DNA of 54,490 bases from an uncultured Candidatus Bathyarchaeia archaeon (GCA_964394935.1 CAYMZN010000004.1:1-54490); one strand, 5' to 3'; positions 2,801 to 32,103 are shown, counted from the stretch's first letter. The notes: generated from the sequence alone by a model not told the origin. A program made the numbers and translations.

Positions 2801-3430
2801 TTGTTAATAGCCCGAGAACATAGACTTGGTAGTGTGCAAGTGGTTGTGTTGTCGAAACAAGAGGATCTCGATCTCAAGCATCTGGCCGAGATGAAAGCAT
2901 ACCTGGAGAAGAAGATCGCGGACTCGGAGCGAGAAAATGAGCGACTGAAATCATTTCTCGCGGTAGTCGACTCGCTCCTCGCGGAGAAGAGTTTCAAGCC
3001 CGTCAAGATCTCAGCGGAGGTCCAGGCGGCGGTCGCTCCAGAGAGGGCTGAAGCAGCGACGAAGCAGGTAAGCGAGGTCTGGCCGATAACCTCCCCTGAA
3101 GGCGTTCATCTTGCGGATCTCCAGATCACCGAGTCAGAGATCATGTTAGTTCCGGATCCGGCCATCAGGTACGAGGTGGCGTCACCTCCTCTGCGAGCGT
3201 TTCTTATTGCACGTGTTCTTGATCCCATGAATACGAAGGATCAAGAGGCAGCGCGCAATGGTCAGCTGAATCCCAACAATGTCTTGTCCTACGACGTTGA
3301 GGAGGACAGTGGCGTTCTGAAGGCCTTGCGTGTTCGAAATTACAGGGACCAAGGAAGGCTCATGGAGCTCAGGAATGCCATACGGTGGACCATCCGCCGA
3401 ATGTACGAAAAAACCCTGCAGACGCGATGA
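2801..3430 (+). CDS. hypothetical protein with an N-terminal coiled-coil segment; start codon uncertain
   Basis: 209-aa ORF from a TTG. It has a heptad-like stretch, KHLAEMKAYLEKKIADSERENERLKSFLAVVDSLL, and a protein-like C-terminal half. An alternative ATG lies at 2891. No family recognised. Confidence 0.5.
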   Translation: MLIAREHRLGSVQVVVLSKQEDLDLKHLAEMKAYLEKKIADSERENERLKSFLAVVDSLLAEKSFKPVKISAEVQAAVAPERAEAATKQVSEVWPITSPEGVHLADLQITESEIMLVPDPAIRYEVASPPLRAFLIARVLDPMNTKDQEAARNGQLNPNNVLSYDVEEDSGVLKALRVRNYRDQGRLMELRNAIRWTIRRMYEKTLQTR

Positions 3431-3690: not shown

Positions 3691-4176
3691 TCACTTCGTC
3701 TCCGGGTTTTTCTGGATCACATCAACAGTAGGGCTAACCGGAATCGATCTAGTGCGCTCTAGGTATGCCTCCGCCTTGTGAAGAGTGTCTTTGGCATTCT
3801 TGTAAGTGAGGCGTTCGAGGGCTTGGCGGTATGGTAGCCACTCATACCCGACGTGTTCGCCTGATATCTTCACTTCCTCTTTTCCGGTTGCTTCGACTAG
3901 GTAAAATATGACTTCCTTGAAGACAGTCCTGCCGCGCCTCCTGTAAAAGTAGCTGACTCGTTCTCTGAAGTCACTTAGGAACCTGTGGTTCCTCAGTCCT
4001 GTTTCTTCAACTATCTCTCTACTGACCGTCTCCTGCTCGGATTCCTTTTTCTCCGCGTGACCCTTCACGAAGTCCCAATGTCCTGCTTCATAATGTAACA
4101 GTAGATACTCGGCGCCATTTCCGACCCCAAATATGACCGCGCCGCAGGACTTCTCGTGCTCCATTCGACTCCACAT
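3691..4176 (-). CDS. NUDIX hydrolase (Ap4A-hydrolase-like)
   Basis: Complete Nudix box GHAEKKESEQETVSREIVEETGL (G-x5-E-x7-REUxEExGU). HWDFVKGH resembles the asymmetric Ap4A hydrolase subgroup. Confidence 0.85.
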   Translation of the reverse strand: MWSRMEHEKSCGAVIFGVGNGAEYLLLHYEAGHWDFVKGHAEKKESEQETVSREIVEETGLRNHRFLSDFRERVSYFYRRRGRTVFKEVIFYLVEATGKEEVKISGEHVGYEWLPYRQALERLTYKNAKDTLHKAEAYLERTRSIPVSPTVDVIQKNPETK

Positions 4177-8731: not shown

Positions 8732-10525
8732 ATGTGCCAGGACTGGCGATCTCACGTGAGATATGAGCAACTTGCAGAGGTCCTCGAGGGGATCGAGGCA
8801 ACCTCAAAGAGGCTTGAGATGACGGATCTCCTAGTCAAGTTGCTCAAGGAAACTCCAGAGGAGATCGTGGACAAAGTCGTGTATCTAACTCAAGGCAAGC
8901 TGTATCCGGACTACGTGGGCATCGAGCTTGGAATGGCAGAGAAGCTGGTCGAGAAAGCGATATCATTTGCATCCGGTCGCTCTGAAGCCGAAGTTGAATC
9001 GGCGTACAAACGGAGCGGAGACTTGGGACTAACCGCTCAGCAGATGCTCAAGAAGAGAACCCAATCCACCTTGATGAAGAAGCAGCTGACCGTTGAGGCC
9101 GTGTATGAGACCTTCGACAAGATCGCTCGGGCAATTGGCGACGGCTCCGTCGACGCGAAGATCAAACTTCTCTCGAGCCTTCTGAGCGACGCGAATCCTG
9201 AAGAAGCAAAATTCGTAGCCCGAATGGCTCTAGGCAAGCTGAGAGTGGGAATCGCCGACATGACGATCCTTGATGCACTCGCAATAGCCTATGCTGGAGG
9301 AAAGGAGTTCAGGGAGCCATTTGAGAGAGCCTACAACCTGTCGTCTGATTTGGGATACGTCGCAAAGATTGTGGCTTCTCGCGGTGTCGACGGGGTGAAG
9401 GACTTCAAGATATCCGTTGGGCGTCCTATAAGACCCATGTTGTGCGAGCGCCTCTCCTCAGCTCAGGAGATCCTTGCAAAGCTCGAAGGCAAAGCGTCGG
9501 CCGAATACAAGTACGATGGCCTACGCATCCAAGCGCATCTCTCCAAGGAGCGGGTTCAGCTCTTCTCAAGACGGCTAGAAAACATAACGAGTCAGTTCCC
9601 AGATGTCGCCGAAAGTCTGAGAAACGCAGCAGTCGCCGAGCGGGCGATTCTTGAGGGAGAATGCGTTGCAGTCGATCCGAACACAGGCGACATGTTGCCC
9701 TTCCAAGTCGTTTCGCAACGCAGAGGCCGAAAATACGAGATAGAAACAATGGCGGAGGAAGTCCCTGTAACAGTCTTCCTGTTCGATGTTCTGTGTGCCG
9801 AAGGACACGACTTCACCCTGACACCCTACTTGGACCGGAGAAAGGAGCTCATCAAGATCGTCAAAGAGTCAGAACAGGTACGGATCGCCGAGCAATTGCT
9901 GACTGAAGACTCAACCGAGCTTGAACGGTACTTCGACAAGGCTGTGTCTCTGGGCTGCGAGGGGCTTGTTGTCAAGAGCATTGGTGCAGAATCGGTCTAC
10001 CAAGCAGGTGCGCGCGGTTGGCTCTGGATCAAGTATAAGAGATCCTACAAGGCGGAGGTGGCTGATACTTTCGATCTGGTTCCCGTGGGAGCTTTCTACG
10101 GAAGGGGAAAGAGAGCAGGTACATATGGCGCGCTACTGATGGCGGTGTACAACACGGAGAGCGACCAGTTCGAGACAATATCCAAACTAGGGAGCGGGTT
10201 CACAGATGAGGACCTCGCGAAGCTACCCAAGATCCTAGGGCAAGACGTGCTTCCCCACAGGCATCCGAGAGTCACTTCTGAGATGAAAGCGGACGTTTGG
10301 TTCACACCCCAGCGGGTCCTAGAGGTATCAGCGGACGAGATCACTCTCTCACCTCTTCACACATGCGCGCTGAATGCCGTCCGGCGCGGCAGCGGGTTGG
10401 CGCTAAGGTTTCCTAGATTCACAGGGAAATATCGGGACGACAGGTCACCAGAGGACGCGACGACTACCAAGGAGGCTTTGGAGACATATCATAGGCAGCT
10501 GAAGAAGATTGAAGCCGAAGCATAG
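8732..10525 (+). CDS. lig: ATP-dependent DNA ligase
   Basis: The adenylation motif I is EYKYDGLRIQAH (KxDG). Also present are EGLVVKS, LWIKYKRSY and a C-terminal OB domain with RFPRFTGKYRDDRSPEDATT. The ORF track starts at a TTG at 8666. I prefer the ATG at 8732 because of the typical N-terminus ...YEQLAEVLEGIEATSKRLE. Confidence 0.9.
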   Translation: MCQDWRSHVRYEQLAEVLEGIEATSKRLEMTDLLVKLLKETPEEIVDKVVYLTQGKLYPDYVGIELGMAEKLVEKAISFASGRSEAEVESAYKRSGDLGLTAQQMLKKRTQSTLMKKQLTVEAVYETFDKIARAIGDGSVDAKIKLLSSLLSDANPEEAKFVARMALGKLRVGIADMTILDALAIAYAGGKEFREPFERAYNLSSDLGYVAKIVASRGVDGVKDFKISVGRPIRPMLCERLSSAQEILAKLEGKASAEYKYDGLRIQAHLSKERVQLFSRRLENITSQFPDVAESLRNAAVAERAILEGECVAVDPNTGDMLPFQVVSQRRGRKYEIETMAEEVPVTVFLFDVLCAEGHDFTLTPYLDRRKELIKIVKESEQVRIAEQLLTEDSTELERYFDKAVSLGCEGLVVKSIGAESVYQAGARGWLWIKYKRSYKAEVADTFDLVPVGAFYGRGKRAGTYGALLMAVYNTESDQFETISKLGSGFTDEDLAKLPKILGQDVLPHRHPRVTSEMKADVWFTPQRVLEVSADEITLSPLHTCALNAVRRGSGLALRFPRFTGKYRDDRSPEDATTTKEALETYHRQLKKIEAEA

Positions 10526-10570
10526 CTAGGTTGATCCTGCATCACCGCTTTCGAGAATTGTAATGACTCT

Positions 10571-11521
10571 GTGGTTCAGAGAGAATACGCCGGCGTCAAT
10601 GGAGCCGGCCCCGAATATGAAGTGGTCGCAGTGCTTGGAGCAAACACCTTACTCGACAACCTTGAGGCCATTGCAAAGGCTCACGAACTCTGCAATAGAT
10701 ACGGCCTGGATGTGATATCCACCGGAGCTGTCATCGGCTTCGCTCTGGAAGCGGCAGAACACGTCATCCTAACGGATGACCAGACAGAGGAGCTGGATCT
10801 CACTTGGGGGAATGGAAAATCGATCGTGAAGCTGGTTGAGAAGATCGGTCGTCGTGAAGGTCTTGGATACCAACTCGGCGAGGGTGTCATGCGAACCGCG
10901 GCAAGACTCGGGAGAGGCAGCGAAGTGTTTGCGCTCCATGTGAAGGGCCTTGAGCCACCGGCACATGACTCCCGCGCTTACAACAGTCTGGCGGTCGGAT
11001 ATGCGACCGCAAACCGCGGCGCCTGTCATGTCCAAGGGATGTCCTACGCATTTGAGCGGTCAGTGACGATGCCAGAGCTTGGTATATACGAAGTTCAGGA
11101 TAGGTTCGGGGTCATGAACAAGGGGGAACTGGTTGCAAGGGCTCAGGATCTGATGTCGCTCTTCGACTCTCTCAAGCTCTGCAAGTTCATGCTCTATGGC
11201 GGCGTGAAACTGACACATGTCCTGGAATGGTTCAATGGCGTAACAGGTTTGGAAATAGGTCAAGCAGAGTTGATGAAAGCCGGCGAGAGGATCTACAACC
11301 TCAAGCGAATGTACAACATCAGATGCGGTATCACGAGAAAAGACGACATCGTGCCAGCGAGGATGCTTGGAGAGAAACGACAAGAGGGCGGGGCCGCTGA
11401 TAACCTGCCACCATTTGAGGCAATGCTCGACGAATACTATAGATACCGTGGCTGGAATGAGTCTGGGGTGCCGGAAAAAGCGAAGTTGTGGGAACTGGGG
11501 CTTGTGCAGATACTCTCCTAG
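10571..11521 (+). pseudogene. aldehyde:ferredoxin oxidoreductase (AOR family) C-terminal fragment lacking about the first half
   Basis: The 316-aa ORF begins inside the AOR domain 2/3 region (GPEYEVVAVLGANTLLDNLEAIAKAHELCNRYGLDVISTG...). There is an in-frame TGA at 10532-10534. The N-terminal domain and the Cys-rich cluster/pterin-binding region are absent, and the ligase stop is only 45 nt upstream. Confidence 0.75.
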
Positions 11522-11575
11522 ACCACTCGAATTTCGCAATCGGCTTCCGATCGACTAATATTGCCTACTTGCTGA

Positions 11576-12562
11576 GTGAGTGAACGGAAGTCCACTTCTT
11601 TGTCGTCAAAGCAGGTGATCATCGAGGTTCTAGATCGAATCAAAAGTAAGGAGTTTAGAGGCCCAACACGTGTCACGCAGGCAGCGCTCAGAGCTCTAAG
11701 CGAGGCCTCTCGAGAGTCCGGCAGTGGCTCTCCGAAGGAATTCCTAGAAGAGCAATCAGCTTTCGGTGATCTACTCCTTAAGACGCGCCCAACAGCGATT
11801 CTTCTCGCGAACGGGGCTCGGCTAGTCGTCGACGCGATCAAGAAAGGCGCAGGTCAGGGATTGAACGTGCCCGCGCTTCAAGACATCGTATCCGAGACAG
11901 TAGACTCATTTCTTGCTGAGATGCAACAATCCGTCGACCAAATTGGCGAGATCGGAGCCAGAAGGTTACGCAGCGGAGACACAGTCCTTTGCTACGGCTA
12001 CAGCACTTCCGTTCTTTCGATCGTTGCCAAGGCACAGGAGCAGGGAAAGAACCCGAAAGTCGTGGTCAGTGAGGCACGGCCGGAGCTCGAAGGCCGCCTG
12101 ATGGCGAGGGAGTTTCTGAAACTTAATGTGCCGACGACCATGATCATTGACTCGGCCGTATCTTACTTCATGAAGGACGTGGACCGAGTTCTCACCGGAG
12201 CGGACGCCGTAACTGCGAACGGGGCCGTAATCAACAAGATAGGCACCTCCACAATAGCAGCGATTGCTCATTACTCGCGGGTCAATGTGTTTGTCGCGGC
12301 GAGCATCTACAAGTTCAGTCCAGAGACGATATTGGGCGAGCTCGTCGAGATAGAAGAGCTGGACCCCTCCCTTCTGATCCCCAAGGAGATGACGTCACAG
12401 TTCAAAGGGATGCAGATACGCAATCCAGCGTTTGACGTTACTCCCCCAGAGCATATTGACTTGATCTTAACCGAGAGAGGCGTCATCCCTCCGCAGGGAG
12501 CCATTATGATTCTGCGTCAACATGAGGCCGTTTCTCTTGGCTCAAGCGTCCCCAGCATCTAG
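11576..12562 (+). CDS. eIF-2B alpha/beta/delta family protein, divergent paralog A (ribose-1,5-bisphosphate isomerase-like, catalytic-Cys motif not conserved)
   Basis: 328 aa with family motifs TRPTAILLAN and GADAVTANGAVINKIGTS. The THCNS-type motif is replaced by LCYGYS and RGAG by RGPT. Confidence 0.75.
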   Translation: MSERKSTSLSSKQVIIEVLDRIKSKEFRGPTRVTQAALRALSEASRESGSGSPKEFLEEQSAFGDLLLKTRPTAILLANGARLVVDAIKKGAGQGLNVPALQDIVSETVDSFLAEMQQSVDQIGEIGARRLRSGDTVLCYGYSTSVLSIVAKAQEQGKNPKVVVSEARPELEGRLMAREFLKLNVPTTMIIDSAVSYFMKDVDRVLTGADAVTANGAVINKIGTSTIAAIAHYSRVNVFVAASIYKFSPETILGELVEIEELDPSLLIPKEMTSQFKGMQIRNPAFDVTPPEHIDLILTERGVIPPQGAIMILRQHEAVSLGSSVPSI

Positions 12563-12588
12563 GGAAGGAATTCAGCTGGGTTGAGAAG

Positions 12589-13587
12589 ATGTCCACCGTG
12601 CTGATTCCGGCCGAAGTTAGGCAGATCGCGGAAGATATCCGGGAAATGAAGGTCAGAGGCGCTGGAGAATTGGCAAGATCGGCTGTAAAAGCCCTTAAGA
12701 TCGCGTGTGAAAAATCGTCCGCAAAGAACGCCCAGGCCTTCCTTGCTGACATTCGAACAGCCGCTATGGCTTTGCTCGAAACAAGGCCGACGGCAGTCTC
12801 TCTGCCCAACGGGATTCGTTACGTGGTGCACAGATTAAGGCAGGCTGGTCAGCGGACTCAAGACGTTGAACAGCTGCGTCTAGCCGGCGTTAAGTCTGCA
12901 GAAGAATTCATCGCGAACTCAAACACCGCGATCGAGCGGATCGGGGAAATAGGGGCCCGTCGGATCAAGGATGGCGACGTGTTGTTGACTCACTGCAATA
13001 GCTCCGCAGCCATCTCCATCATCAAGACTGCTTGGAAGATGGGTAAGCGGATACACGTCTATGTGACCGAGACGCGCCCCAGATTTCAGGGTAGACTGAC
13101 CGCAGCCGCTTTACTGGAAGACGGAATCCCGGTGACCATGATCATTGACGACGCGGCAAGGTACTTCATGAAAGAAATCGACAAATTCATCATAGGGGCG
13201 GACGCGGTCACAGCCAACGGAGCCGTCGTCAACAAGATCGGCACTTCAATGATTGCCTTGGCCGCGAAAGAATCCAATGTGCGCACATTTGTTGCTGCGG
13301 AGACCTACAAGTTCAGTCCCGAGACGATGATCGGGGAAGTTGTCGCGATCGAGCGGCGTAGCACAGATGAGGTCATAGGAAAAGCCGAGCTCGTGAAATT
13401 GCCGGGCATGGACGTGAAGAACCCGTCATTCGATGTGACGCCGCCGGAATATATTGATCTCATAATCACAGAGAGAGGCATAACCCCACCGCAGGGTGCC
13501 ATTCTGATCTTGCAAGAAGTAATGGGCGCCATCACCCCTGAAGAACTCGAAGAGTATAAGACGTTCACACTCGCCGAAGTCGACTAG
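12589..13587 (+). CDS. ribose-1,5-bisphosphate isomerase (eIF-2B family, paralog B)
   Basis: 332 aa. It carries MKVRGAGELARSA, TRPTAVSLPNGIRYV, LLTHCNSSAA (Cys-containing motif), ETRPRFQG and GADAVTANGAVVNKIGTS. It lies two genes upstream of type III rbcL, with prs between. Confidence 0.75.
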   Translation: MSTVLIPAEVRQIAEDIREMKVRGAGELARSAVKALKIACEKSSAKNAQAFLADIRTAAMALLETRPTAVSLPNGIRYVVHRLRQAGQRTQDVEQLRLAGVKSAEEFIANSNTAIERIGEIGARRIKDGDVLLTHCNSSAAISIIKTAWKMGKRIHVYVTETRPRFQGRLTAAALLEDGIPVTMIIDDAARYFMKEIDKFIIGADAVTANGAVVNKIGTSMIALAAKESNVRTFVAAETYKFSPETMIGEVVAIERRSTDEVIGKAELVKLPGMDVKNPSFDVTPPEYIDLIITERGITPPQGAILILQEVMGAITPEELEEYKTFTLAEVD

Positions 13588-13674
13588 TTGGATGATTGCC
13601 AACTCGGTGACCTAGCTTATGTCACGCCCAAAGCTTATTCGTGCCTTGGTAAAGCTTCGAGGAGAGTGCCTAGA

Positions 13675-14559
13675 TTGAAGATCATCGGAGGAAGTGGTGG
13701 GCAGCTCCTTGCGACTCTTGTCGCCCACCAGCTCAGTTTGAAAACCTCGAGAGTGGAGATTAGGAGGTTCCCCGACGGAGAGAAGTACATTCGCATCGAT
13801 GACGATCTCGCAGGGCAGGATGTCGTCCTAGTTCAATCAATTCACCATGAGCCTGACAACTTTCTGTTTGAATACCTTCTCCTGTGCGACACAGTCAAAG
13901 ACTTGGGGGCCAAGAAGGTAGTGGGTGTGTTTCCGTACTTTGCCTATGCCAGACAGGACAGTCGATTCAACCCTGGAGAGGCTGTGAGTTTCAGAACGGT
14001 GACTAAACTCATCGAGGATGTCGGCACTGCGGAATTGTTTTCGATTGACATGCATCAGCACAGGGTCGAGCGGGCAGGTGACCTGTTCAGAATTCCCGTT
14101 CACAATCTGACGGCCGCTCCGCTCTTGGCCGAGTACGTCAAGGCGAACGTACCACTTCAGAGACCAACGGTGATAGGACCTGACGAGGAATCAGAGCAAT
14201 GGGCACAGGCAGCGGCCAAGGTTATCGGTACAGACCACGATGTCTTGCAGAAGAGGAGACTCGGAGCCGACAAAGTTGAGATAAGGACAAGATCGCTCGA
14301 CGTTCAGGGCAGGGACGTGCTGATCATGGATGACATCATAAGCACAGGAGGGACAATCGTGGAGGCAAGCAAGATTCTGAAGAGCCAAGGTGCTCAACGG
14401 CTGGTTGTCGCATGCACCCACCCCATCCTCGCTCAAGACGCTCTTGCAAAAATCTACGAATCAGGAGCAGAGATCGTGGTGGGAACAGATACAGTTCCAA
14501 GCTCCATCAGCTACGTTTCCGTCGCTCCACTGATCGCTGATGCAATCAGGAAACTCTAG
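13675..14559 (+). CDS. prs: ribose-phosphate pyrophosphokinase (PRPP synthetase family)
   Basis: Motifs are LKIIGGSGG, FPDGEKYIRI, FPYFAYARQD and the PRPP loop VLIMDDIISTGGTIVEA. The start is placed at the TTG at 13675, preceded by GGAGAG (13661-13666). The ORF track extends to the TTG at 13588. Confidence 0.85.
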   Translation: MKIIGGSGGQLLATLVAHQLSLKTSRVEIRRFPDGEKYIRIDDDLAGQDVVLVQSIHHEPDNFLFEYLLLCDTVKDLGAKKVVGVFPYFAYARQDSRFNPGEAVSFRTVTKLIEDVGTAELFSIDMHQHRVERAGDLFRIPVHNLTAAPLLAEYVKANVPLQRPTVIGPDEESEQWAQAAAKVIGTDHDVLQKRRLGADKVEIRTRSLDVQGRDVLIMDDIISTGGTIVEASKILKSQGAQRLVVACTHPILAQDALAKIYESGAEIVVGTDTVPSSISYVSVAPLIADAIRKL

Positions 14560-14652
14560 CCACACGCGCAGCCTGGAGGCCGTCTTGGCTCGTTGCGTTT
14601 AGAGAAGGTTTTTCTCAGCCAGGTCACCCGTACTTCTCGAGTCTGCTGATAA

Positions 14653-15966
14653 TTGCAGAAGTTCCAGGCAGGAGTCAGTCCGTATTCGAAGCGCTACCTA
14701 GAGCTCGGATATGAACCAGAAGAGACCGAGCTCTTGATCGCATTTAGAGTGACGCCACGGCCTGGTACATCGATGGAGGAGGTCGCGTCAGCTGTTGCTG
14801 CTGAGTCGTCTGTGGGAACGTGGACTGAGGTAGAACTTGGAAACGAGGAGAAGTACAACAAGTTCAAGGCAAGGGTCTACCGGATCGAGGGTGATGTTGC
14901 CTACATTTCCTACCCGGTCATCCTCTTCGAAGACGATAGCATACCAAACATACTCAGTAGTGTAGTGGGCAATGTATTCGGCTTCAAAGCCGTGAGTGCC
15001 CTCCGAATCGAGGACATGCGCATCCCGCTGGCACTAGCGAACACCTTCCCGGGTCCCGCGTTTGGCATTGAAGGAGTTCGAAAAATCCTAGGAGTAAGGG
15101 ATCGTCCGATGACTGGCTCCACAATGAAACCGAAGCTAGGCAATAGTCCAAGGGAGCATGCCTACATCGCGTATAACACGCTCCGCGGGGGGATCGACAC
15201 AGTCAAGGATGACGAGAATCTGAACAGTCAAAGTTGGAGCAACTTCTACGAGCGAGCTGACGAGACGCTCAAAGCTGTCGAAAGGGCTGAGAAGGAGACG
15301 GGCGAGAGCAAAGGATGGTGGGCGAACGTCACCGCGGGCAATACCGAGGAGATGCTGAAGCGCTGCGAATACGTCGCAAAGAACGGCGGAAAATTCGTCA
15401 TGGTTGACTACCTGACCGTTGGGTTCGCGGCTACGGCATCACTGAGGAAATGCACTGGAGAGCTGGGCTTGGCCCTGCACTGCCACAGGGCGATGCATGC
15501 AGTCATGGATCGCCAACCGAATCATGGCGTGGAGTTCAAAGTTCTAGCTAAATGGGCCCGTCTGGTGGGGGTAGACCATATCCACACAGGAACAGGCGTT
15601 GGGAAGCTCGAGGGCGAGTTTCAAGATATCAAGGACAGATGCAACCTGCTCCGCAAGAGCTACACCCCGAAGGAGGGCGGCTTGTATTTCGATCAACCGT
15701 GGGGAAACATCAAGACCGTAGTGCCTGTGGCCTCGGGAGGCCTACACCCGGGGCACGTCTGGAAAGTCTACGAAAGCTACGGGAAAGATGCATTCTTTCT
15801 ATTCGGAGGAGGTTGTCACGGACACCCCGGTGGCAGCTACGCCGGCGCAAGTGCCGTCAGAGCTGCAGTCGAGGCCGCTGCGGCGGGGATCGGTCCTGAA
15901 GAAGCAGCCAAGCGAAGTAAGGAGCTGCAGCAAGCCCTCGAACTCTGGGGTGCAGTGCGCTTTTGA
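14653..15966 (+). CDS. rbcL: ribulose-1,5-bisphosphate carboxylase, type III large subunit
   Basis: 437 aa with catalytic signatures intact: GSTMKPKLG, GGIDTVKDDENL (carbamylated Lys plus Asp/Glu), HCHRAMHAV, HIHTGTGVGKLEG and GGGCHGHPGG. No small subunit is nearby. TTG start. Confidence 0.9.
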   Translation: MQKFQAGVSPYSKRYLELGYEPEETELLIAFRVTPRPGTSMEEVASAVAAESSVGTWTEVELGNEEKYNKFKARVYRIEGDVAYISYPVILFEDDSIPNILSSVVGNVFGFKAVSALRIEDMRIPLALANTFPGPAFGIEGVRKILGVRDRPMTGSTMKPKLGNSPREHAYIAYNTLRGGIDTVKDDENLNSQSWSNFYERADETLKAVERAEKETGESKGWWANVTAGNTEEMLKRCEYVAKNGGKFVMVDYLTVGFAATASLRKCTGELGLALHCHRAMHAVMDRQPNHGVEFKVLAKWARLVGVDHIHTGTGVGKLEGEFQDIKDRCNLLRKSYTPKEGGLYFDQPWGNIKTVVPVASGGLHPGHVWKVYESYGKDAFFLFGGGCHGHPGGSYAGASAVRAAVEAAAAGIGPEEAAKRSKELQQALELWGAVRF

Positions 15967-16009: not shown

Positions 16010-16552
16010 CTAAGGTCGTAGCCCCTTCAAGGTCTGGCTTGCAAGCTCGAGAGCTTTCTCCACCGCCCTTGCCGGATCGCTTTCTGTTAGAATCCGAACG
16101 CTCTGGCGCTCATCTAGGAACGTTCCCTTTATCCGGTCAGCCACGCCTCCGCTTCCCTCAATTGCGACGATTGGCTTTGCCTTCAAGTATGCAGCGCATG
16201 CCTCGATGAGAGCTCCCGCCCCGCCCGCAATGATCACCACGGCATCAGCACTATGTGCGGTGATGAAGTCTCTGGCCCAACCCATCCCGGTAGCGATGAC
16301 TACGTCGCAGTAGCGATTCGCGTACTGCACCTGGTCCTGAGGAATTATGCCGACGGTGGTTCCGTGATTCTCTTTTGCTCCTTTGCACGCTGCCTCCATT
16401 ACTCCGCCCAACCCGCCGGTCAAGACTACTGCCCCTCGCTTCGCCGCCTCTGCGCCAACTTGGTAGCCTATTTTGCGAGCTTCTTCCGTGCAGTGATCTG
16501 CAGCGGAACCTATCACCAGTAGCTGCAGCCTCTTGCCAGTTTCGTCTTCCAA
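16010..16552 (-). CDS. TIGR00725 / LOG (SLOG) superfamily Rossmann-fold protein
   Basis: 180 aa. VLTGGLGGVMEAACKGA and IIAGGAGALIEA resemble the GGGxGxM and PGGxGTxxE motifs of LOG-type nucleotide phosphoribohydrolases. Confidence 0.7.
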   Translation of the reverse strand: MEDETGKRLQLLVIGSAADHCTEEARKIGYQVGAEAAKRGAVVLTGGLGGVMEAACKGAKENHGTTVGIIPQDQVQYANRYCDVVIATGMGWARDFITAHSADAVVIIAGGAGALIEACAAYLKAKPIVAIEGSGGVADRIKGTFLDERQSVRILTESDPARAVEKALELASQTLKGLRP

Positions 16553-16801: not shown

Positions 16802-17044
16802 ATGACCTCCGCCATCGAGACGCCAAAGATTGTCATAGTGGAGGATCTCTGCAAGGGCTGCGGGATCTGCATTGAATTCTGCCCAGCCAAGATACTCAAG
16901 GTCGGCAGCCGTATGACGAAGAAAGGCGTCTTTGCTCCGGAGGTCATTGATCCGTCAAAGTGCACAGCTTGCCGGATCTGTCAGTACTATTGTCCAGATC
17001 TTGCCATATTCGTCGTCGGGGGGTCTAAGGTTTCCCGCTCGTAA
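16802..17044 (+). CDS. korD: 2-oxoacid:ferredoxin oxidoreductase delta subunit (2x[4Fe-4S])
   Basis: 80 aa with two CxxCxxCxxxCP motifs (CKGCGICIEFCP and CTACRICQYYCP). It is first in a four-gene OFOR operon. Confidence 0.8.
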   Translation: MTSAIETPKIVIVEDLCKGCGICIEFCPAKILKVGSRMTKKGVFAPEVIDPSKCTACRICQYYCPDLAIFVVGGSKVSRS

Positions 17045-17061
17045 GACCCGGAACGTACTTC

Positions 17062-18177
17062 ATGCAAGGAAACGAGGCATGCGCGCTAGGCGCAGTTGCG
17101 GCAGGCTGCAGATTCTTCGCCTTCTACCCGATCACTCCTGCCGGCGAGATTGCTGAGAAGATGGCGCGGGTCCTTCCAAAGGCACGCGGTGTGTACATTC
17201 AGATGGAGGATGAAATCGCGGCAATCGGGAGCATAATCGGGGCCTCATGGACGGGCTTGAAGGCAATGACCGCGACTTCAGGCCCCGGATTCAGCCTCAT
17301 GCAGGAGAACATCGGATACGCAGTGATGACTGAGGCACCATGCGTGATCGTAGATGTTCAGCGGGCGGGTCCGAGCACCGGAATTGTCTCCGCTCCCATG
17401 CAAGGCGACGTGGTCCAGGCGAGGCATGGCAGCCACGGCGAGTATGACATCATCGCTCTTGCACCGTCCTCAGCTCAGGAAATGTTCGACATCACCATTC
17501 GCGCATTCAATCTCGCAGAAGAGTACAGGACGCCTGTGATCGTCCTCGCGGACGAGACTGTCGCTCACATGCGTGAAGAAGTTGTGATCCCCGAGGAAGG
17601 CTCTCTCACAATCATCAACAGAAAGATCCCGTCGAGCACCGAGGAAGCGTCTCGAGGATTCCTTAGCCCCTCAGTTGCCCCAATGCCGATCTTCGGGATG
17701 GGATTCGCAGCTCACGTGACCGGCTCGTCGCACGATGAATACGGAAAGCGGCAGGCAAGCGCGCCTGAGGCAATAGACAAGATCGTACGAACAATCAACG
17801 AGAAGATAAGACCACACACCAGAGAGATTTCAACAATAGAGAAAGTGATGTTGGACGACGCCGACATCGTAGTTGTCGCGTATGGAAGCTGCGCTAGGAC
17901 TGCGGAGCATGTTGTGAAAGAGGCGCGTGACAGAGGAGTGAGGGTCGGTCTCCTGAGGCCAATCGGCCTTTGGCCGTTTCCGGCAGAAGCAATGCAGGAA
18001 GCGCTCAAACGGGCTCGCCGAGTAATTGTGTTAGAGAACAATCTAGGCCAACTCTTTCCAGAGGTTGAGAGAATAGTGCCCGAGAGCGCGGAAACAATGT
18101 TCCTGCCTCCGCAAACCCTCGGAACCTTGCCCAGGCCGGACTACGTCCTGGGACATGTGATGACAGAGGCGAGTTAG
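17062..18177 (+). CDS. korA: 2-oxoacid:ferredoxin oxidoreductase alpha subunit
   Basis: 371 aa. The N-terminus MQGNEACALGAVAAGCRFFAFYPITPAGEI and SGPGFSLMQE are typical of the OFOR alpha subunit. Confidence 0.88.
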   Translation: MQGNEACALGAVAAGCRFFAFYPITPAGEIAEKMARVLPKARGVYIQMEDEIAAIGSIIGASWTGLKAMTATSGPGFSLMQENIGYAVMTEAPCVIVDVQRAGPSTGIVSAPMQGDVVQARHGSHGEYDIIALAPSSAQEMFDITIRAFNLAEEYRTPVIVLADETVAHMREEVVIPEEGSLTIINRKIPSSTEEASRGFLSPSVAPMPIFGMGFAAHVTGSSHDEYGKRQASAPEAIDKIVRTINEKIRPHTREISTIEKVMLDDADIVVVAYGSCARTAEHVVKEARDRGVRVGLLRPIGLWPFPAEAMQEALKRARRVIVLENNLGQLFPEVERIVPESAETMFLPPQTLGTLPRPDYVLGHVMTEAS

Positions 18178-18179
18178 CT

Positions 18180-19016
18180 TTGTCCGTTCAGATGGCGCAC
18201 CCATTATCGAGTTACATACGAAAAGGCGCCCAACCGCACACGCACTGTTCGGGCTGTGGCAACGGAATCATTGCTCAGTCCTTTCTGAGAGCCCTCCACG
18301 AGATTGGAATCGATAGGAAGAAAATCGTGTGTGTAGCGGGAATCGGATGCAGTGGTTGGATCCCTAGCCCATTCTTCGATGTTGATACCCTTCATGTGAC
18401 ACACGGGAGACCAATTGCGTTCGCTACAGGCGTGAAGCTTGGCAAGCCTGATCTAGAGGTTGTAGTTTTCACCGGCGACGGAGACGCCTCCGCGATCGGC
18501 GGCAATCACCTCATACACGCGGCCCGCAGAAACATCGGGGTGAAGGTGATCTGCGTGAACAACATGATCTACGGGATGACAGGTGGAGAGGTAGCACCCA
18601 CCACGCCACGAGGAATAAGGACGACGACCACCCCATTTGGGAACCTAGAGAGGCCGTTCGACCTCTCCAAACTCGTCATAGCCGCGGGAGGCACCTATGT
18701 CGCACGGTGGACCACCTACCACGTCGCCAGACTTGTTGCTTCAATGAAGAAGGCGTTGGTGAGGAAGGGCTTCGCCTTCGTTGAAGTCCTATCCCAATGT
18801 CCAGTCCACTACGGCCGTAGGATTGGTATCTCGAATCCTGTCGAGATGATGCGATGGTTCCAGAAACAGTCCGTTCCCGTTGAAAGAGCTCGTGAAATGA
18901 GTGAGCAAGAACTGGCTGGGAAGTTCGTTGTAGGGGAGTTCGTGAACATCGACGCACCAGAGCTCAGCCAACTGTACGCAGAGCTATTCGAGACGGCTAA
19001 CCGTGAATCGAACTGA
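18180..19016 (+). CDS. korB: 2-oxoacid:ferredoxin oxidoreductase beta subunit (TPP-binding)
   Basis: 278 aa with CSGCGNGI, the TPP motif GDGDASAIGGNH and NNMIYGMTGGE. An alternative ATG lies at 18192. Confidence 0.88.
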   Translation: MSVQMAHPLSSYIRKGAQPHTHCSGCGNGIIAQSFLRALHEIGIDRKKIVCVAGIGCSGWIPSPFFDVDTLHVTHGRPIAFATGVKLGKPDLEVVVFTGDGDASAIGGNHLIHAARRNIGVKVICVNNMIYGMTGGEVAPTTPRGIRTTTTPFGNLERPFDLSKLVIAAGGTYVARWTTYHVARLVASMKKALVRKGFAFVEVLSQCPVHYGRRIGISNPVEMMRWFQKQSVPVERAREMSEQELAGKFVVGEFVNIDAPELSQLYAELFETANRESN

Positions 19017-19563
19017 AGTCAGAATCGCGGGGTTCGGCGGCCAAGGCGTGATCTTAGCCGGCATAGTTCTAGGGCATGCCGCTGCAGTTTACGAAGGCAA
19101 GAAAGCAGTTCAGACGCAGTCCTATGGGGCTGAGGCGAGAGGTGGCGCAGCTCGCTCAGAGGTCGTTATTTCAAATCAGAAGATCGACTACCCAAAGGTC
19201 ATCTCGGCGGACATAACGATCGCGATTTCGCAAGAGTCGTTTGAGAAATATGGGACGAACGTGAAGCCTGGAAGCAAATTGTTCGTCGATGCGGACCTAG
19301 TGGCGAACATATCGACTGTTAAGGGAGGAACGATCTACTGTATTCCGGCAACGAAACTAGCCGCGAATGAATTCAAGAAGACGTTGGTTGCTAACATGGT
19401 TATGCTCGGAGCTGTGGCCGCGGTCACCAAGGTTGTGAAACTCGATAGTCTCAAGATGAGTATTGTAGAAGTGGCTCCCAAGGGATCGGTTGGCCTGAAC
19501 ACAAGAGCCCTAGAGCGGGGGTTCCAGTGGGCAGGTGCCAATCTCGCGACCGGCCCGAGTTGA
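19003..19563 (+). CDS. korC: 2-oxoacid:ferredoxin oxidoreductase gamma subunit
   Basis: 186 aa with RIAGFGGQGVILAG and QTQSYGAEARGG. The GTG start overlaps the korB end by 14 nt. Confidence 0.85.
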   Translation: MNRTEVRIAGFGGQGVILAGIVLGHAAAVYEGKKAVQTQSYGAEARGGAARSEVVISNQKIDYPKVISADITIAISQESFEKYGTNVKPGSKLFVDADLVANISTVKGGTIYCIPATKLAANEFKKTLVANMVMLGAVAAVTKVVKLDSLKMSIVEVAPKGSVGLNTRALERGFQWAGANLATGPS

Positions 19564-19569
19564 AAGCGG

Positions 19570-20529
19570 TTAGGTCCCTAGGGGTTGGATTCTCTGAGTC
19601 AGCTTCGGGACGACCTGGTATAGGTCTCCGACTATCCCATAGTCAGCTATCTTGAAGATCGGTGCTTCCTTATCCTTGTTAATCGCGACGATTAGTTTCG
19701 AACTCATGATTCCTACCGTATGCTGGATCTGTCCGGAGATTCCGATCGAAACGTGAAGTTTCGGCTTACATCTCTTGCCTGAGATTCCAACCATTCTGTC
19801 CTCTGAAATCCAGTGATAGTCGGACGAGAGTGCTCGGGTGCATCCCAGCTCCGCTTTCAGCAGTGCGGACAGCTCATTCACCATCGCCAGGTCCTCCTTG
19901 CTGGATAGTCCCTTTCCGACGCAGATCAGCCTCTCAGCTGATTCTATGTTGACTGACTCACCGATTTTCTTTCTGCGTTCGACCAATTGCACCCGAGGAG
20001 GTGGAACGTTTAATTCTACTTTTTCGACTATGCCCTGAACAGGTGCGGGCTGCGCTTCGAACGTTCTAGGCATGACCGAGATGACTTTCTTCTTCGTCCT
20101 GATGATTTCTGACGATATTGTGTTGCCTCCGAGAGCGTATCTGTCGACCACCAAATCCGACCCTTTCACGGTTAGATCGATCGCGTCCGTGATGCAACCG
20201 GCCTGAAGCTTCTGGGCTACACGTCCAGCGGTCTCCTTGCCGAGCCTCGTCGATCTGATCAATAGAATGTCCGCGCCATTCTCCTTGGCGATCTCGTGCA
20301 AGACGTTTGCGTACGTTTCCGCGTCAAGAGTTCCAATGCTGCTGTCTGGGACCAAGAGGGTTTTCTGTGCACCATACTCAAGATAGGACTGGATCTTCGT
20401 GTCATCCCTGTTGCCAAGGATAACTGCAGAAAGCTCCAGGTTCAGTTGTTTCGAGAGTTCACGGCCCTTTGTGAGGAGCTCGAAGGCGCCCTCATCAGTC
20501 TCCGAGGATACGATAAGCCGACCGATCAT
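19570..20529 (-). CDS. etfA: electron transfer flavoprotein alpha subunit (FixB-like)
   Basis: The start is set at the internal ATG (MIGRLIVSSE...), which forms an ATGA overlap with the etfB stop. The FAD-binding C-terminal region is GISGQIQHTVGIMSSKLIVAINKDKEAPIF. The 59-aa N-terminal extension in the ORF track is Arg/Ser-rich and looks non-coding. Confidence 0.85.
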   Translation of the reverse strand: MIGRLIVSSETDEGAFELLTKGRELSKQLNLELSAVILGNRDDTKIQSYLEYGAQKTLLVPDSSIGTLDAETYANVLHEIAKENGADILLIRSTRLGKETAGRVAQKLQAGCITDAIDLTVKGSDLVVDRYALGGNTISSEIIRTKKKVISVMPRTFEAQPAPVQGIVEKVELNVPPPRVQLVERRKKIGESVNIESAERLICVGKGLSSKEDLAMVNELSALLKAELGCTRALSSDYHWISEDRMVGISGKRCKPKLHVSIGISGQIQHTVGIMSSKLIVAINKDKEAPIFKIADYGIVGDLYQVVPKLTQRIQPLGT

Positions 20530-21311
20530 GGCAGAGCTCCCTCCTTTCGGAGAGCATCTACTAGTTTTCCAACCGCTTCGTCTACATCTCCCTCGAAGAA
20601 CACGCCTTTCCGCTCCTGCTGCGGTGCCAAGTTGCTGACGACTTGAATGGCGGACGACGCCGAGCCGACTGCACCCGGATCGATTCCAAGATCTTTCAGG
20701 GTCCACGACTTCAATGGCTTGCGCGAGGCTCGAAGGATCTGTGCTAGCGGTGCTCTTCGCGGCTTGTTGATCTCACTGGTCACCGAGACCACCGAGGGCA
20801 TCTCGGCCTTCACGACTTCAAGCGCGGCCTCCACGTCCCGGACCGCAGTAATAGTGTTGCCCCCTATGGAGAGCTCTCTCACGTAGGTGATCTGAGGGAT
20901 ATTGAGGATCTCCGCGATCCTTGAACCGATCTGGCCGGAGTAGTTGTCGGCCGAGCCTTCTCCGACCAGTATAAGATGGTATGGGGCGATCTTTTCGATC
21001 GCCCTGACCAATGTCCTTGCTGAGGCCGCTGTATCTGAACCTTCACACGCAGGATCGACGACTGTGCACGCTTCGTCAGCACCCATCGCGAGCGCTTCAA
21101 GGACGGTATCCTTGAGTTTGGCCGAGCCTACTGATAGAACGGTGACCTTTGCGCCGTGTTTCTCCTTTATCCTGACCGCCTCCTCAAGCGCATTCTTGTC
21201 CATGTCACCGTAGAGAACGGGTAGACCCTCCAGCACCGGCTCACGGGTGTCACGCTTGATTCGAATCTGTTGAAGGTCAACTACCTGTTTCATGCATGCT
21301 ATGACGTGCAT
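20526..21311 (-). CDS. etfB: electron transfer flavoprotein beta subunit (FixA-like)
   Basis: 261 aa. It has the typical EtfB N-terminus MHVIACMKQVVD, a GEGSADNYSGQIGSRIAEILNIPQITYV segment, and operon context. Confidence 0.85.
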   Translation of the reverse strand: MHVIACMKQVVDLQQIRIKRDTREPVLEGLPVLYGDMDKNALEEAVRIKEKHGAKVTVLSVGSAKLKDTVLEALAMGADEACTVVDPACEGSDTAASARTLVRAIEKIAPYHLILVGEGSADNYSGQIGSRIAEILNIPQITYVRELSIGGNTITAVRDVEAALEVVKAEMPSVVSVTSEINKPRRAPLAQILRASRKPLKSWTLKDLGIDPGAVGSASSAIQVVSNLAPQQERKGVFFEGDVDEAVGKLVDALRKEGALP

Positions 21312-21383
21312 TTATCGGTACCCCATTCAATTGCAGCTAGACCCGTTTCGCGACATGACTAGAAACACATGACTCTTTCCGTT

Positions 21384-21659
21384 TCAACTGAAACGGTACT
21401 GGACTCCGAAACCCGCCTTAGGATACTGCCAGCTCAGCGCCTCCTCGAGGCACGCAATGACACAGGCCCCGCATTCCAGGCACCCGTCTGGGTTCGGGTG
21501 CACATCGCCTCGTTCATCGAGCGAATACACCTTCGCTGGGCAGACGAAGAGGCAATACTTGGGCTCGCACTTCTCTCGGCAGACTTCCTGGTTTATCTTG
21601 ATATGTCCTTCCTTGTCGACCTTGAACACGTTTCGTCCGAGTTTCTCTTCCACCTTCAA
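21384..21659 (-). CDS. fixX: FixX ferredoxin-like protein
   Basis: 91 aa with the FixX-like Cys pattern CLFVCPAKVY ... CLECGACVIAC. It lies directly downstream of fixC. Confidence 0.8.
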   Translation of the reverse strand: MKVEEKLGRNVFKVDKEGHIKINQEVCREKCEPKYCLFVCPAKVYSLDERGDVHPNPDGCLECGACVIACLEEALSWQYPKAGFGVQYRFS

Positions 21660-21671
21660 CGTTCTGGCCTT

Positions 21672-22961
21672 CTATATCTTGAGCAGGTCAAGGGCGTCTT
21701 TCAAGGTTGACAGGTTAAGGAAGTTCTTTCTGATCTGCTTGAAGACGGTTGATGAAAGCTTCGGTTTGGGATCAGATCCAATGAACATCAGCTCCGTCAA
21801 GAGGGCACTGATCGCACGAGGATACCTCTCGAACAACCTCGGGTTGCTAAGCACGGTCCAAACATCTGCGAAAGTGTGAAGGTCTCTCATCACGAAAGAT
21901 TTTTTGAGCATCGTCTCATATGCGGCCAGCGATTGTGCGGAGTAGTTGTCCCGTTTCTTCGAGGCCTTGATGGTCTCGGCAGCCATCACCCCAGACGCGA
22001 TAGCGAGATCCATTCCCCTAACGATGATTCCCATGTTGAGCGCGAAGCCAGCCGCATCCCCGACTACCAGAATTCCGTCGCTGTACAATGTTGGTACAGA
22101 CTTTATTCCTCCTTCAGGAATCATGTGAGCGGAGTATTCGAGGGTGTCGCCGCCTTCAATTAGGACGGAGACCTCTGGACGTTGCTTGAACTCTTCCATC
22201 AACTGGAAGCTCTCAAGGTGTCGCATATCGGTCATCAGTGCTCCTATGCTGACCACAATGCCGAGAGAGATACTCTCCCGGTTAGTGTACAGGAATCCTC
22301 CGCCAGTCAAGCCCTTGCTGACGGTTCCAAAATAGAGCTGAGCCGCACCTTCGTCCCCATGAAGGTTGAACCTATCTTCGATCGTTTTCCTGGGCAGCTC
22401 GATCGTCTCTTTCATGCCGATAGCAAAATGTTCAGGCTCGTGCTTTCCACGCAGACCTGCTTCTTTGGCGATGAAAGACATCGCGCCGTCCGCCGCGACC
22501 ACGACGTTTGCAGCGATGTCTTCCCCCTCAGCGGTTATTCCAGCAAACTTCCCATTTTCGCGCAGCAGCCCCTCAACTTTGTATTTCGGTACCACCGTGG
22601 CGCCCGCTGCAGATGCCTTCTCGGCAAGCCACCTATCGAAGATGGGGCGGATGAGCGTGTAGCTGTGATACGGCGGCTTTGCGTAGGCATCTGAACGCAG
22701 CTCCACCATGACCGATGAATCATCTGACAACATAGTCAATCGTTCTTTTGCGACGTGCCTCTCGAAAGGCGCTTCATCCCAGATCTCCGCCAGGTACTGT
22801 CTGACCGGATTCATGTACAACCTGCCCCCGGTCACGTTCTTGCTGCCTGAGTAGTCGCCTCGCTCAACCACTAGCACGTCCAAGCCTGCCTTCGCGAGCG
22901 TATACGCACAGGATAAGCCCGCGAGGCCGGCCCCTATGATGGCTGCGTCCACCCGTTCCAC
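21672..22961 (-). CDS. fixC: FixC / ETF:quinone-oxidoreductase-like FAD-dependent oxidoreductase
   Basis: 429 aa with the dinucleotide-binding motif DAAIIGAGLAGLSCAY. It has FixC-type length and context (followed by fixX and etfBA). Confidence 0.85.
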   Translation of the reverse strand: MERVDAAIIGAGLAGLSCAYTLAKAGLDVLVVERGDYSGSKNVTGGRLYMNPVRQYLAEIWDEAPFERHVAKERLTMLSDDSSVMVELRSDAYAKPPYHSYTLIRPIFDRWLAEKASAAGATVVPKYKVEGLLRENGKFAGITAEGEDIAANVVVAADGAMSFIAKEAGLRGKHEPEHFAIGMKETIELPRKTIEDRFNLHGDEGAAQLYFGTVSKGLTGGGFLYTNRESISLGIVVSIGALMTDMRHLESFQLMEEFKQRPEVSVLIEGGDTLEYSAHMIPEGGIKSVPTLYSDGILVVGDAAGFALNMGIIVRGMDLAIASGVMAAETIKASKKRDNYSAQSLAAYETMLKKSFVMRDLHTFADVWTVLSNPRLFERYPRAISALLTELMFIGSDPKPKLSSTVFKQIRKNFLNLSTLKDALDLLKI

Positions 22962-23034
22962 ATTTGATCTCCAGATTGCACTCGAAGCTGTCCGCTATAT
23001 TGTGTTGTGAAAAATGAAGATGACTGAAAGGCCC

Positions 23035-31953: not shown

Positions 31954-32103
31954 GCACTCTCACTCTCTCAATCATGAATGCTTCTGACTGTTGCTCGCCA
32001 TAGGACTACGCGGTGTTGAGATAAAGCCTTGCTGAACCGTTGCCGGAGTGTTAATAGTCGAAGCTCTCTACATGATGTATCTGGATCCGGAACTGGGTGA
32101 AAA

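Follow-up and report, generated by a model that had tools for sequence, protein, structure and literature searches.

A form I-related RuBisCO in a conserved Bathyarchaeia gene module with PRPP synthetase and two eIF2B-family paralogs

The DNA analysed here is a stretch of 54,490 nucleotides (the window) from an uncultured Candidatus Bathyarchaeia archaeon (GCA_964394935.1, CAYMZN010000004.1:1-54490), in which positions 11576-15966 carry four open reading frames (ORFs) in one strand direction: e2b2-A, e2b2-B, prs and rbcL (Table 1; A, B, P and R where gene orders are given). Labels on the closest RbcL, Prs and e2b2 matches and on related genome contigs agree with an origin in Bathyarchaeia. Pfam and NCBIfam assignments identified two members of the IF-2B/ribose-1,5-bisphosphate (R15P) isomerase-like family, a ribose-phosphate diphosphokinase (Prs, or phosphoribosyl diphosphate (PRPP) synthetase) and a large subunit (RbcL) of RuBisCO, the carboxylase/oxygenase that uses ribulose-1,5-bisphosphate. 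Together with the ORF coordinates, these assignments agree with a preliminary description of the locus, made from the sequence alone, which had seen four co-oriented genes with short gaps and had proposed a type III RuBisCO operon fed by PRPP. Gene callers placed later starts on identical public contigs, at 11600 for A and at TTG 13675 for Prs ('LKIIGGS...'), which leaves intergenic gaps of about 26-35, 87 and 93 nt.

Pfam scans covering practically every ORF of substantial size in the 54-kb window revealed no member of the AMP-phosphorylase family (Glycos_transf_3), no phosphoribulokinase (PRK), no adenine phosphoribosyltransferase (APRT) and no HAD or PfkB protein, in line with the earlier statement that an AMP-phosphorylase-family protein is not encoded in these 54 kb. 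The window gave no matches in Rfam and tRNA scans, and scans of the cluster for sigma-70 promoters and terminators stayed at chance level with models that are unsuited to archaea.

RbcL contains the motifs KPKLG, KDDE, HCHRA, HIHTG, GKLEG, SGG and GGGC, and the complete carboxylase catalytic set (K175, K177, K201, D203, E204, H294, R295, H327, K334, S379 and G403/404), which is common to forms I-III and hence does not discriminate between forms. Every catalytic motif quoted in the preliminary description was thus present, supporting its prediction of a real carboxylase as opposed to a RuBisCO-like protein. The label 'type III', however, did not hold. The form III model TIGR03326 was barely passed (501.4 versus a cut-off of 497.45), while the general RbcL model NF003252 gave 569.4; the form III enzymes of sister Bathyarchaeia (loci L044/L047; L and P numbers are our own labels for loci and protein entries) behaved in the reverse manner, with 598-607 on TIGR03326 versus 556-559 on the general model. 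Among solved structures, the nearest were ancestral form I (551-562 bits), 8u66 (523) and form I' 6ura (505), with form I (about 400 bits) and Thermococcus kodakarensis (Tk) form III (about 380) ranking lower. Identity amounted to 85-91% within a tight Bathyarchaeia group, 64-66% to Chloroflexota/Limnocylindria and 54-58% to Anaerolineales/Desulfobacterales, with Anaerolineales at 57-58% including NIOZ-UU35, whose RbcL belongs to I-alpha clan-2 according to a recent preprint (10.64898/2026.09.21.753380). The match list also held proteins labelled 'form I' and synthetic ancestral form I constructs. In a neighbour-joining (NJ) tree, the RbcL clade of the window was sister to Chloroflexota sequences in a form I-related group, well separated from archaeal form III.

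Because of these model scores, the structure ranking and the grouping with Chloroflexota, we classify the window RbcL as form I-related ('form I-alpha'-like, sensu Liu 2023 / Bamba 2026) and not as form III, on the strength of sequence comparison: it groups with form I-alpha and neither falls in the form III clade nor scores best as form III. This archaeal clade comprised about 10 species-level metagenome-assembled genomes (MAGs; nine complete loci and one split across two contigs) as well as dozens of metagenome contigs, among which Ga0315314_1000001 (locus L054, A-B-P-R-SLOG layout) reaches 1.69 Mb. Neither in the window nor in relatives did an rbcS-like ORF adjoin rbcL, and a Bathyarchaeota form I-alpha RbcL has been predicted to be a dimer (10.64898/2026.09.21.753380).

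A form I-related enzyme might in turn point to Calvin-Benson-type autotrophy as in its bacterial relatives, given that the closest non-archaeal relatives (Chloroflexota, Anaerolineales) lie in Calvin-Benson-Bassham (CBB) operons with PRK (10.64898/2026.09.21.753380). However, neither the window nor the flanking DNA at any Bathyarchaeia locus yielded a PRK or CBB gene, PRK is reported to be absent from all Bathyarchaeia genomes surveyed (PMC8407382), and, unlike the bacterial I-alpha members with their PRK-containing operons, the window gene sits with R15P isomerase and Prs genes. We consider autotrophy of this type very improbable.

The second paralog, e2b2-B, had been described as R15P-isomerase-like, which the comparison confirmed. 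It scored 418 bits on TIGR00511 (cut-off 314), matched the Tk R15P isomerase 3a11 with an E-value of 2e-111, and retained the catalytic pair Cys133/Asp202 (Tk numbering) within THCNS and GAD, where the Tk enzyme has THCHS and GAD; THCNS and GAD were shared by 23/23 B-clade proteins compared. All ligand contacts listed for the R15P isomerase of Pyrococcus horikoshii (Ph-R15Pi; PMC5789824), namely R22, R65, S137, Q166, N214, K215 and K240, were conserved, so that score, catalytic pair and the 1-phosphate, 5-phosphate and sugar ligands all fit a ribose-1,5-bisphosphate isomerase, and e2b2-B is predicted to be catalytically competent.

The divergence that had been noted for the first paralog, e2b2-A, proved to involve a specific loss of the catalytic Cys. 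This protein is only about 44% identical to e2b2-B, exceeds the TIGR00511 cut-off marginally (319.3 versus 314.1), and carries CYGYS in place of the THC[HN]S of R15P isomerases, while the GAD aspartate is retained; alignment to the Tk and Ph enzymes places a Gly at Cys133 (Tk)/Cys135 (Ph). The catalytic Cys was absent from all 133 A-clade sequences examined. All 36 database orthologs of the window lineage showed [C/S]YG[Y/H/F]S, with Gly at the catalytic position, and all 83 more distant database proteins of the clade had Ser (about three quarters), Gly or Ala there, with the catalytic Asp replaced by Glu in 82/83 of these. Motifs at 80 metagenome loci agreed with this database census.

Much of the ligand pocket has nevertheless been kept, in that R65, S137, N214, K215 and K240 were 100% conserved across the A clade, and R22 was 100% conserved in the window lineage and 80% elsewhere. 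Systematic changes affected Q166 (to E, at the 1-phosphate site), A24/G25 (to P/T or G/T, at the 5-phosphate backbone site) and R190 (to S, at the inter-protomer AMP site), the window protein itself carrying Q166E, A24P, G25T and R190S. Out of 118 columns invariant in B and Tk, 59 were kept in at least 90% of the A sequences and 39 were lost. In Ph-R15Pi, the C135S mutant is inactive yet still binds R15P as well as RuBP (ribulose-1,5-bisphosphate) with a Kd of 7-14 uM, and the C135A mutant is inactive and has lost substrate binding, eIF2B-alpha having Ala or Gly at this position (PMC5789824). Lacking the catalytic Cys, e2b2-A should not be classed as an R15P isomerase; because the pocket residues are kept and the C135S mutant is inactive but binding, it is best read as a ligand-binding, non-isomerising paralog. 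In all 30 informative loci of the census described below, A lay beside B or one gene away from it, and by analogy with eIF2B alpha/beta/delta it most likely serves the oligomeric isomerase B as a regulatory subunit or as a partner that binds ligand without catalysis.

It might alternatively be an active enzyme, acting either as an isomerase via the Cys two residues upstream (C-Y-G) or on another substrate or by another chemistry (sugar-1-phosphate, PRPP). This upstream Cys is conserved in the window lineage (34/36 database orthologs) next to a retained GAD, most phosphate and sugar contacts are in place, and the near-universal Q166-to-E change beside the 1-phosphate site could suit a metal-bound diphosphate. 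All other A-clade lineages, however, lack the upstream Cys (TH[S/G]YS) and also carry the Asp-to-Glu change. To our knowledge, every characterised enzyme of the family (MtnA, R15Pi) uses the canonical Cys. Both Ph-R15Pi mutants, moreover, were inactive (PMC5789824), and we regard an active e2b2-A as improbable.

Prs scored 329.6 on the NF002095 equivalog (cut-off 296) and aligned over its full length with Methanocaldococcus jannaschii Prs (1u9y; E 1e-72), with FPDGE, ARQD, the KRR-loop and DDIISTGGT conserved, so that score and motifs assign it to the class III archaeal PRPP synthetases. Its homologs fell into three tiers. Those of 76-83% identity always occurred in the long gene layout described below (P0147 on 16 contigs). 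Those of 71-74% (P0160-P0168) stood alone in an adh_short-glyoxalase-prs context, in samples sharing a project with contigs of the short layout. Those of 57-66% belonged to other Bathyarchaeia, many members being linked to the module. With the last tier as outgroup, the clade of stand-alone Prs (P0160-P0168, L039-43) nested within the clade of cluster Prs in an NJ tree, and at two loci (L134/135) an L047-type neighbourhood was intact with Prs alone, A, B, RbcL and the HAD-IA gene being absent. Because of this nesting and of these Prs genes kept outside the module, the cluster prs is probably the ordinary housekeeping PRPP synthetase of the genome. A dedicated paralog was considered and rejected on the same two observations. 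Comparison with archaeal Prs pointed to a canonical enzyme (equivalog and motifs). Relocations of prs imply that two copies coexisted at least for a time. When the adh_short-glyoxalase-[prs]-DUF362 neighbourhood was sought in the window as an 'empty site', only an unrelated short-chain dehydrogenase/reductase matched.

Two irregular Prs records deserve mention. At L073 (Ga0209725_1000138), the cluster prs was apparently split or duplicated (two adjacent Prs matches; P0184 of 238 aa) and may be frameshifted. Furthermore, a Prs (WP_455285076.1) and an A-clade 'ribose 1,5-bisphosphate isomerase' (WP_455285080.1), members of P0128 and P0251, are labelled [Eubacterium] cellulosolvens; they come from a 5,564-bp contig, are 78-86% identical to Bathyarchaeia proteins, and probably represent a contaminant contig in a bacterial assembly.

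Close relatives of the window displayed two layouts: a long one, aor-A-B-prs-rbcL(-SLOG), as in the window, and a short one, aor-B-rbcL-SLOG. In the short layout, the gap between B and rbcL still matched the prs-rbcL intergenic DNA of the window, and a short remnant resembling the N-terminus of A lay upstream of B. L064 showed A-B-[prs remnants]-RbcL, with N- and C-terminal prs fragments between B and rbcL (9986-10390). The short layout also nested within the diversity of the long layout in NJ trees of B, RbcL and Prs. Because relatives lacking Prs or A retain remnants of the missing genes and the trees have this topology, comparative evidence identifies the long layout as ancestral and the short one as derived. 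The reverse order of events, in which A and prs were inserted into an ancestral B-RbcL pair, is rejected on the same remnants and trees. Deletions are actively reshaping the module in the window lineage. In two further loci of this lineage (L068, L070), A-B was followed by several kb without RbcL, and L074 ends too early to tell.

The preliminary description had proposed comparing gene order among relatives, and here the linkage of prs and rbcL turned out to be conserved, distant Bathyarchaeia showing it in three or more gene orders. The order A-B-P-R was found in the window and at L005, L006, L008, L024, L031-38, L052-60 and L132-133; A-P-B-R in BA1 (GCA_001399805.1, LIHJ01000032) and at L047-49, L075, L086, L089, L108 and others; and P-HAD-PfkB-x-A-B-R at L044-46. 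The next relatives of A outside the window lineage (49-58% identity) lay in the same type of cluster in distant Bathyarchaeia. An unbiased scan seeded on the A clade yielded 80 metagenome loci, of which 30, those extending 4.5 kb or more past A in the downstream direction, were taken as informative. B was present in 30/30 of these, Prs in 18/30 and RbcL in 19/30, arranged as ABPR in eight (one with a split prs), AB in seven, APBR in six, ABR in five and APB in four. Spacing was operon-like, with medians of 25 nt for A>B, 64 for A>P, 68 for B>R and -1 nt for P>B (range -11 to +8, n=19), the overlapping or near-abutting P>B junctions suggesting translational coupling.

In other lineages, the module was flanked by PfkB kinases (best matches ribokinase and ribose-1-phosphate (R1P) kinase), HAD-IA and HAD-IB phosphatases and a nucleoside hydrolase, whose predicted activities would fit a role in the metabolism of ribose or nucleoside carbon. 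At two A-Prs-B loci, a DeoC/LacD-family aldolase gene lay just 3' of the trio on the opposite strand (L078, 12933-13769(-); L082, 11037-11738(-)), together with an aldehyde:ferredoxin oxidoreductase (AFOR) or SIS-domain gene. No RuBisCO was found within about 6 kb of loci of this type, which may represent a non-carboxylating variant of the pathway.

Across lineages, identity to the window proteins was 51-58% for A, 62-64% for B and 57-65% for Prs, but only 39-44% for RbcL. The RuBisCO occupying the module in BA1 (L051, 4287-5555) and at L075 differed again, scoring 431 and 413 bits, under both the form III and the general cut-offs, while keeping all catalytic residues; the BA1 enzyme is only 41% identical to the form III enzymes of L044/L047 and represents a divergent type, the third kind of RuBisCO seen in this slot. 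Catalytic residues were intact in all three types. Because A, B and Prs share 51-65% identity and RbcL only 39-44%, with form III in other lineages, we interpret the A/B/Prs module, from these comparisons, as vertically inherited, with RuBisCO exchanged within it.

These data suggest that the conserved Bathyarchaeia module would channel ribose phosphate into glycolysis via R15P, in a pathway of the pentose-bisphosphate type, a reading to which we give a probability of roughly 0.6. In the proposed route, Prs would convert ribose-5-phosphate and ATP into PRPP, e2b2-B would convert R15P into RuBP, and RbcL would turn RuBP and CO2 into two 3-phosphoglycerate (3-PGA), each step being predicted from homology and an intact active site, while e2b2-A would partner with or regulate B, as comparative genomics suggests. 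Because prs is tightly linked to the isomerase and RuBisCO genes, an arrangement that would hold it in tight co-expression with them, ribose-5-phosphate may enter via PRPP, and a functional tie of PRPP synthesis to the conversion of R15P to RuBP and 3-PGA is plausible. The step from PRPP to R15P could go through APRT and an AMP or nucleoside monophosphate (NMP) phosphorylase encoded elsewhere, or could alternatively be a direct loss of the terminal phosphate (spontaneous, or by a Nudix or HAD enzyme).

A PRPP-fed route had been put forward in the preliminary description, and the recurrence of tight linkage across distant Bathyarchaeia supports it as plausible; the idea itself was already in the literature (PMC5113843, PMC7300363, PMC5767755). 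Abiotic conversion of PRPP to R15P in methanogens is credited to Finn & Tabita 2004 (as cited in PMC5113843, PMC5767755), a Nudix enzyme was proposed for this step in heterotrophic marine Thaumarchaeota lacking AMP phosphorylase (PMC7300363), and a PRPP-AMP-R15P loop through APRT and AMP phosphorylase is credited to Sato 2007 (as cited in PMC5767755, PMC5113843).

Several points weigh against this pathway reading. All functional statements are drawn from sequence and synteny, operon status is judged from spacing and conservation, and all trees are NJ trees that carry no support values. Linkage of prs is not obligatory, as Prs was not in the cluster in 12/30 informative loci and was deleted in close relatives. 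Likewise, A is dispensable for B in the short-layout relatives that lost it while keeping B and RbcL. Finally, the position of a housekeeping Prs may stem from a general 'ribose-phosphate' neighbourhood as opposed to RuBisCO flux. The preliminary description would have withdrawn its proposal had deoA (AMP phosphorylase) been encoded elsewhere with prs as the only, housekeeping copy and, in addition, had prs-rbcL linkage been lacking in relatives; prs is probably the housekeeping copy, but the linkage does hold.

In an AMP-phosphorylase-independent route, PRPP made by the operon would be dephosphorylated directly (Nudix, HAD or spontaneous) to R15P, which B and RbcL would then carry to 3-PGA. 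The embedding of Prs between A/B and RbcL and the overlapping or near-abutting Prs-B junctions in many lineages favour this, as do the HAD-IA and HAD-IB genes flanking the module in other lineages, the precedents of an abiotic (as cited in PMC5113843, PMC5767755) and a Nudix-catalysed step (PMC7300363), and the fact that neither AMP phosphorylase nor APRT turned up in the window or in the 8-10 kb on each side of the module loci examined. The last point is tempered by a survey reporting AMP phosphorylase and APRT widely in RuBisCO-bearing Bathyarchaeia (PMC8407382), because of which the absence of an AMP-phosphorylase gene (deoA) from 54 kb says little about the whole genome. Moreover, the cluster of the window lineage comes without a conserved phosphohydrolase, and habitats in peat, soil and sediment make heat-driven decay of PRPP unlikely. 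The Nudix ORF that had been named as a candidate dephosphorylase is indeed a Nudix ORF (Table 1), but nothing ties it to the cluster: it is encoded on the other strand at a distance of 7.4 kb, beside PHO4/PhoU genes, and its assignment is generic, with weak NudB/MutT1-like matches far under the cut-offs. A direct route of this kind appears unlikely.

One elaboration would make e2b2-A the missing link of such a route, with A binding Mg-PRPP and either hydrolysing it to R15P or handing it to B, so that Prs, A, B and RbcL would form a self-contained unit into which any RuBisCO form could be plugged. This suggestion arises because of the near-universal Gln166-to-Glu change at the 1-phosphate site and the remodelled 5-phosphate loop of the A clade, and we treat it as a long shot.

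R15P might instead be supplied as in Thermococcus, from NMPs by AMP/NMP phosphorylase or from nucleosides by R1P kinase, Prs then being only a housekeeping neighbour or at most supplying AMP by way of APRT, as in the loop credited to Sato 2007. This would agree with the orthology of the cluster Prs to stand-alone Prs genes and its persistence without the module, with the 40% of informative loci whose cluster lacks Prs, with the PfkB kinases of R1P-kinase/ribokinase similarity adjoining the module in other lineages, and with the AMP phosphorylase and APRT reported in Bathyarchaeia (PMC8407382). Set against this is the independent placement of Prs in a tight operon at two or more positions (at least A-P-B-R and A-B-P-R) with coupling-like junctions, a pattern not readily accounted for unless co-expression is selected for. 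Supply by this canonical means is possible, if somewhat unlikely.

The genes bordering the cluster are included in Table 1. Relatives (L008, L031, L132, L133) carry ThiS and a full AFOR of 619-625 aa; in the window (10526-11575), ThiS and the 5' ~900 nt of the AFOR gene have been deleted, leaving an AFOR_C-only ORF of 316 aa that starts 45 nt after a DNA ligase gene. Misassembly was ruled out by the identical truncation in two independent Joint Genome Institute (JGI) assemblies. On the other side, the SLOG gene beside rbcL was kept in most relatives of the window lineage and missing from some (L031 type). LOG-family enzymes free ribose-5-phosphate from nucleoside monophosphates. By analogy, the SLOG product might act upstream of Prs, which is speculative, and its membership of the pathway is uncertain.

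Further along the window, 16802-24246 holds a 2-oxoacid:ferredoxin oxidoreductase operon (Fer4, alpha, beta, gamma) that adjoins the cluster, followed by genes for electron transfer flavoprotein (ETF) alpha/beta, an ETF-QO-like flavoprotein and an acyl-CoA dehydrogenase (minus strand), and 24420-25793(-) holds a DUF4147/MOFRL (glycerate-kinase-type) gene. Four ORFs of 117-281 aa gave no Pfam match: 2620-3430, 31968-32813(-), which adjoins a Nop5/fibrillarin pair, 39926-40279(-) and 45973-46356.

Table 1. Genes of the RuBisCO cluster and other features of the window discussed in the text.
Feature	Coordinates	Strand	Description
e2b2-A	11576..12562	+	eIF2B/R15P-isomerase-family paralog without catalytic Cys; PF01008, TIGR00511; likely start 11600 (320 aa)
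e2b2-B	12589..13587	+	predicted competent ribose-1,5-bisphosphate isomerase; TIGR00511 418 bits
prs	13675..14559	+	class III archaeal-type PRPP synthetase, 294 aa; NF002095 329.6; mechanical ORF from TTG 13588
rbcL	14653..15966	+	form I-related (form I-alpha-like) large subunit, full catalytic residue set
SLOG/LOG-like gene	16010..16552	-	LDcluster4, TIGR00725; convergent with rbcL
Aldehyde:ferredoxin oxidoreductase, C-terminal domains only	10571..11521	+	upstream boundary; AFOR_C match begins at profile position 89
NUDIX-domain ORF	3691..4176	-	PF00293, E 4e-16

Four findings are new relative to the literature that could be searched: how widespread the archaeal form I-related clade is, the in-place exchange of RuBisCO inside a conserved A/B/Prs module, the universal lack of the catalytic Cys in the A paralog, and the membership of prs in the operon. 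Form I-related RuBisCOs (I', I'', I-alpha) are used for reconstructing the origin of the dominant carbon-fixing enzyme, and were previously known only from bacteria with Calvin-cycle operons, until the preprint 10.64898/2026.09.21.753380. The Bathyarchaeia clade with such an enzyme is common in peat, soil and sediment metagenomes and occupies the slot in which its relatives carry form III, which would make RuBisCO forms interchangeable within one pathway context and offers a natural system for asking how a form I-lineage enzyme functions without PRK or small subunits. As far as our literature search showed, the conserved and apparently coupled prs provides the first gene-linkage evidence for the long-standing proposal of PRPP feeding archaeal RuBisCO. 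The Cys-less A, paired with B throughout, is most likely a previously unremarked pseudo-enzyme or regulator, and bears on the origin of eIF2B regulatory subunits from sugar-phosphate isomerases.

Among known systems, the closest is that of Bamba et al. (10.64898/2026.09.21.753380, 24 Sept 2026), who described one Bathyarchaeota MAG with a form I-alpha RbcL grouping with Chloroflexota, tandem R15P isomerase genes 'one gene upstream' of rbcL and no CBB genes. They proposed a role in the pentose bisphosphate pathway, regarded the case as possibly unique and favoured horizontal gene transfer. Their account differs from ours in leaving the intervening gene (prs) unnamed, in taking both e2b2 copies as isomerases, and in covering a single MAG with no mention of the form III versions of the module in other Bathyarchaeia.

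The proposed pathway resembles that of T. kodakarensis, as summarised in PMC9700705 from Sato 2007 and Aono 2012 and 2015, in its Cys/Asp dyad R15P isomerase and carboxylating RuBisCO leading from R15P to 3-PGA in nucleoside and ribose salvage, and PfkB-type kinases lie near the module in some Bathyarchaeia lineages. In Thermococcus, however, the RuBisCO is of form III, the genes are scattered, NMP phosphorylase or an ADP-dependent R1P kinase supplies R15P, and neither a direct role of Prs nor a Cys-less paralog is part of the scheme. The haloarchaeal non-carboxylating pentose bisphosphate pathway likewise has an R15P isomerase, without RuBisCO and with HAD, PfkB and aldolase partners (PMC9700705), and some RbcL-less Bathyarchaeia A-P-B loci adjoin a DeoC-family aldolase gene; the window differs in its carboxylating RuBisCO, and HAD/PfkB matches to the haloarchaeal enzymes were far under the cut-offs.

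For e2b2-A, the nearest parallel is eIF2B alpha/beta/delta (PF01008), ligand-sensing, non-catalytic subunits of hetero-oligomers that share the fold family, the replacement of Cys by Ala/Gly and the retained sugar and 5-phosphate residues (PMC5789824). In contrast to these subunits, A is nearer to R15P isomerase (E about 1e-79, versus about 1e-27 to 1e-31 for eIF2B subunits), and keeps 1-phosphate arginines that are absent from eIF2B-alpha, and nothing ties it to translation. Finally, earlier proposals of PRPP-derived R15P likewise feed RuBisCO without PRK, from ribose-5-phosphate through PRPP, R15P and RuBP to 3-PGA; they were built on activity in extracts or on the presence of genes in genomes, whereas here prs is embedded in a putative isomerase-RuBisCO operon across a phylum-level group.

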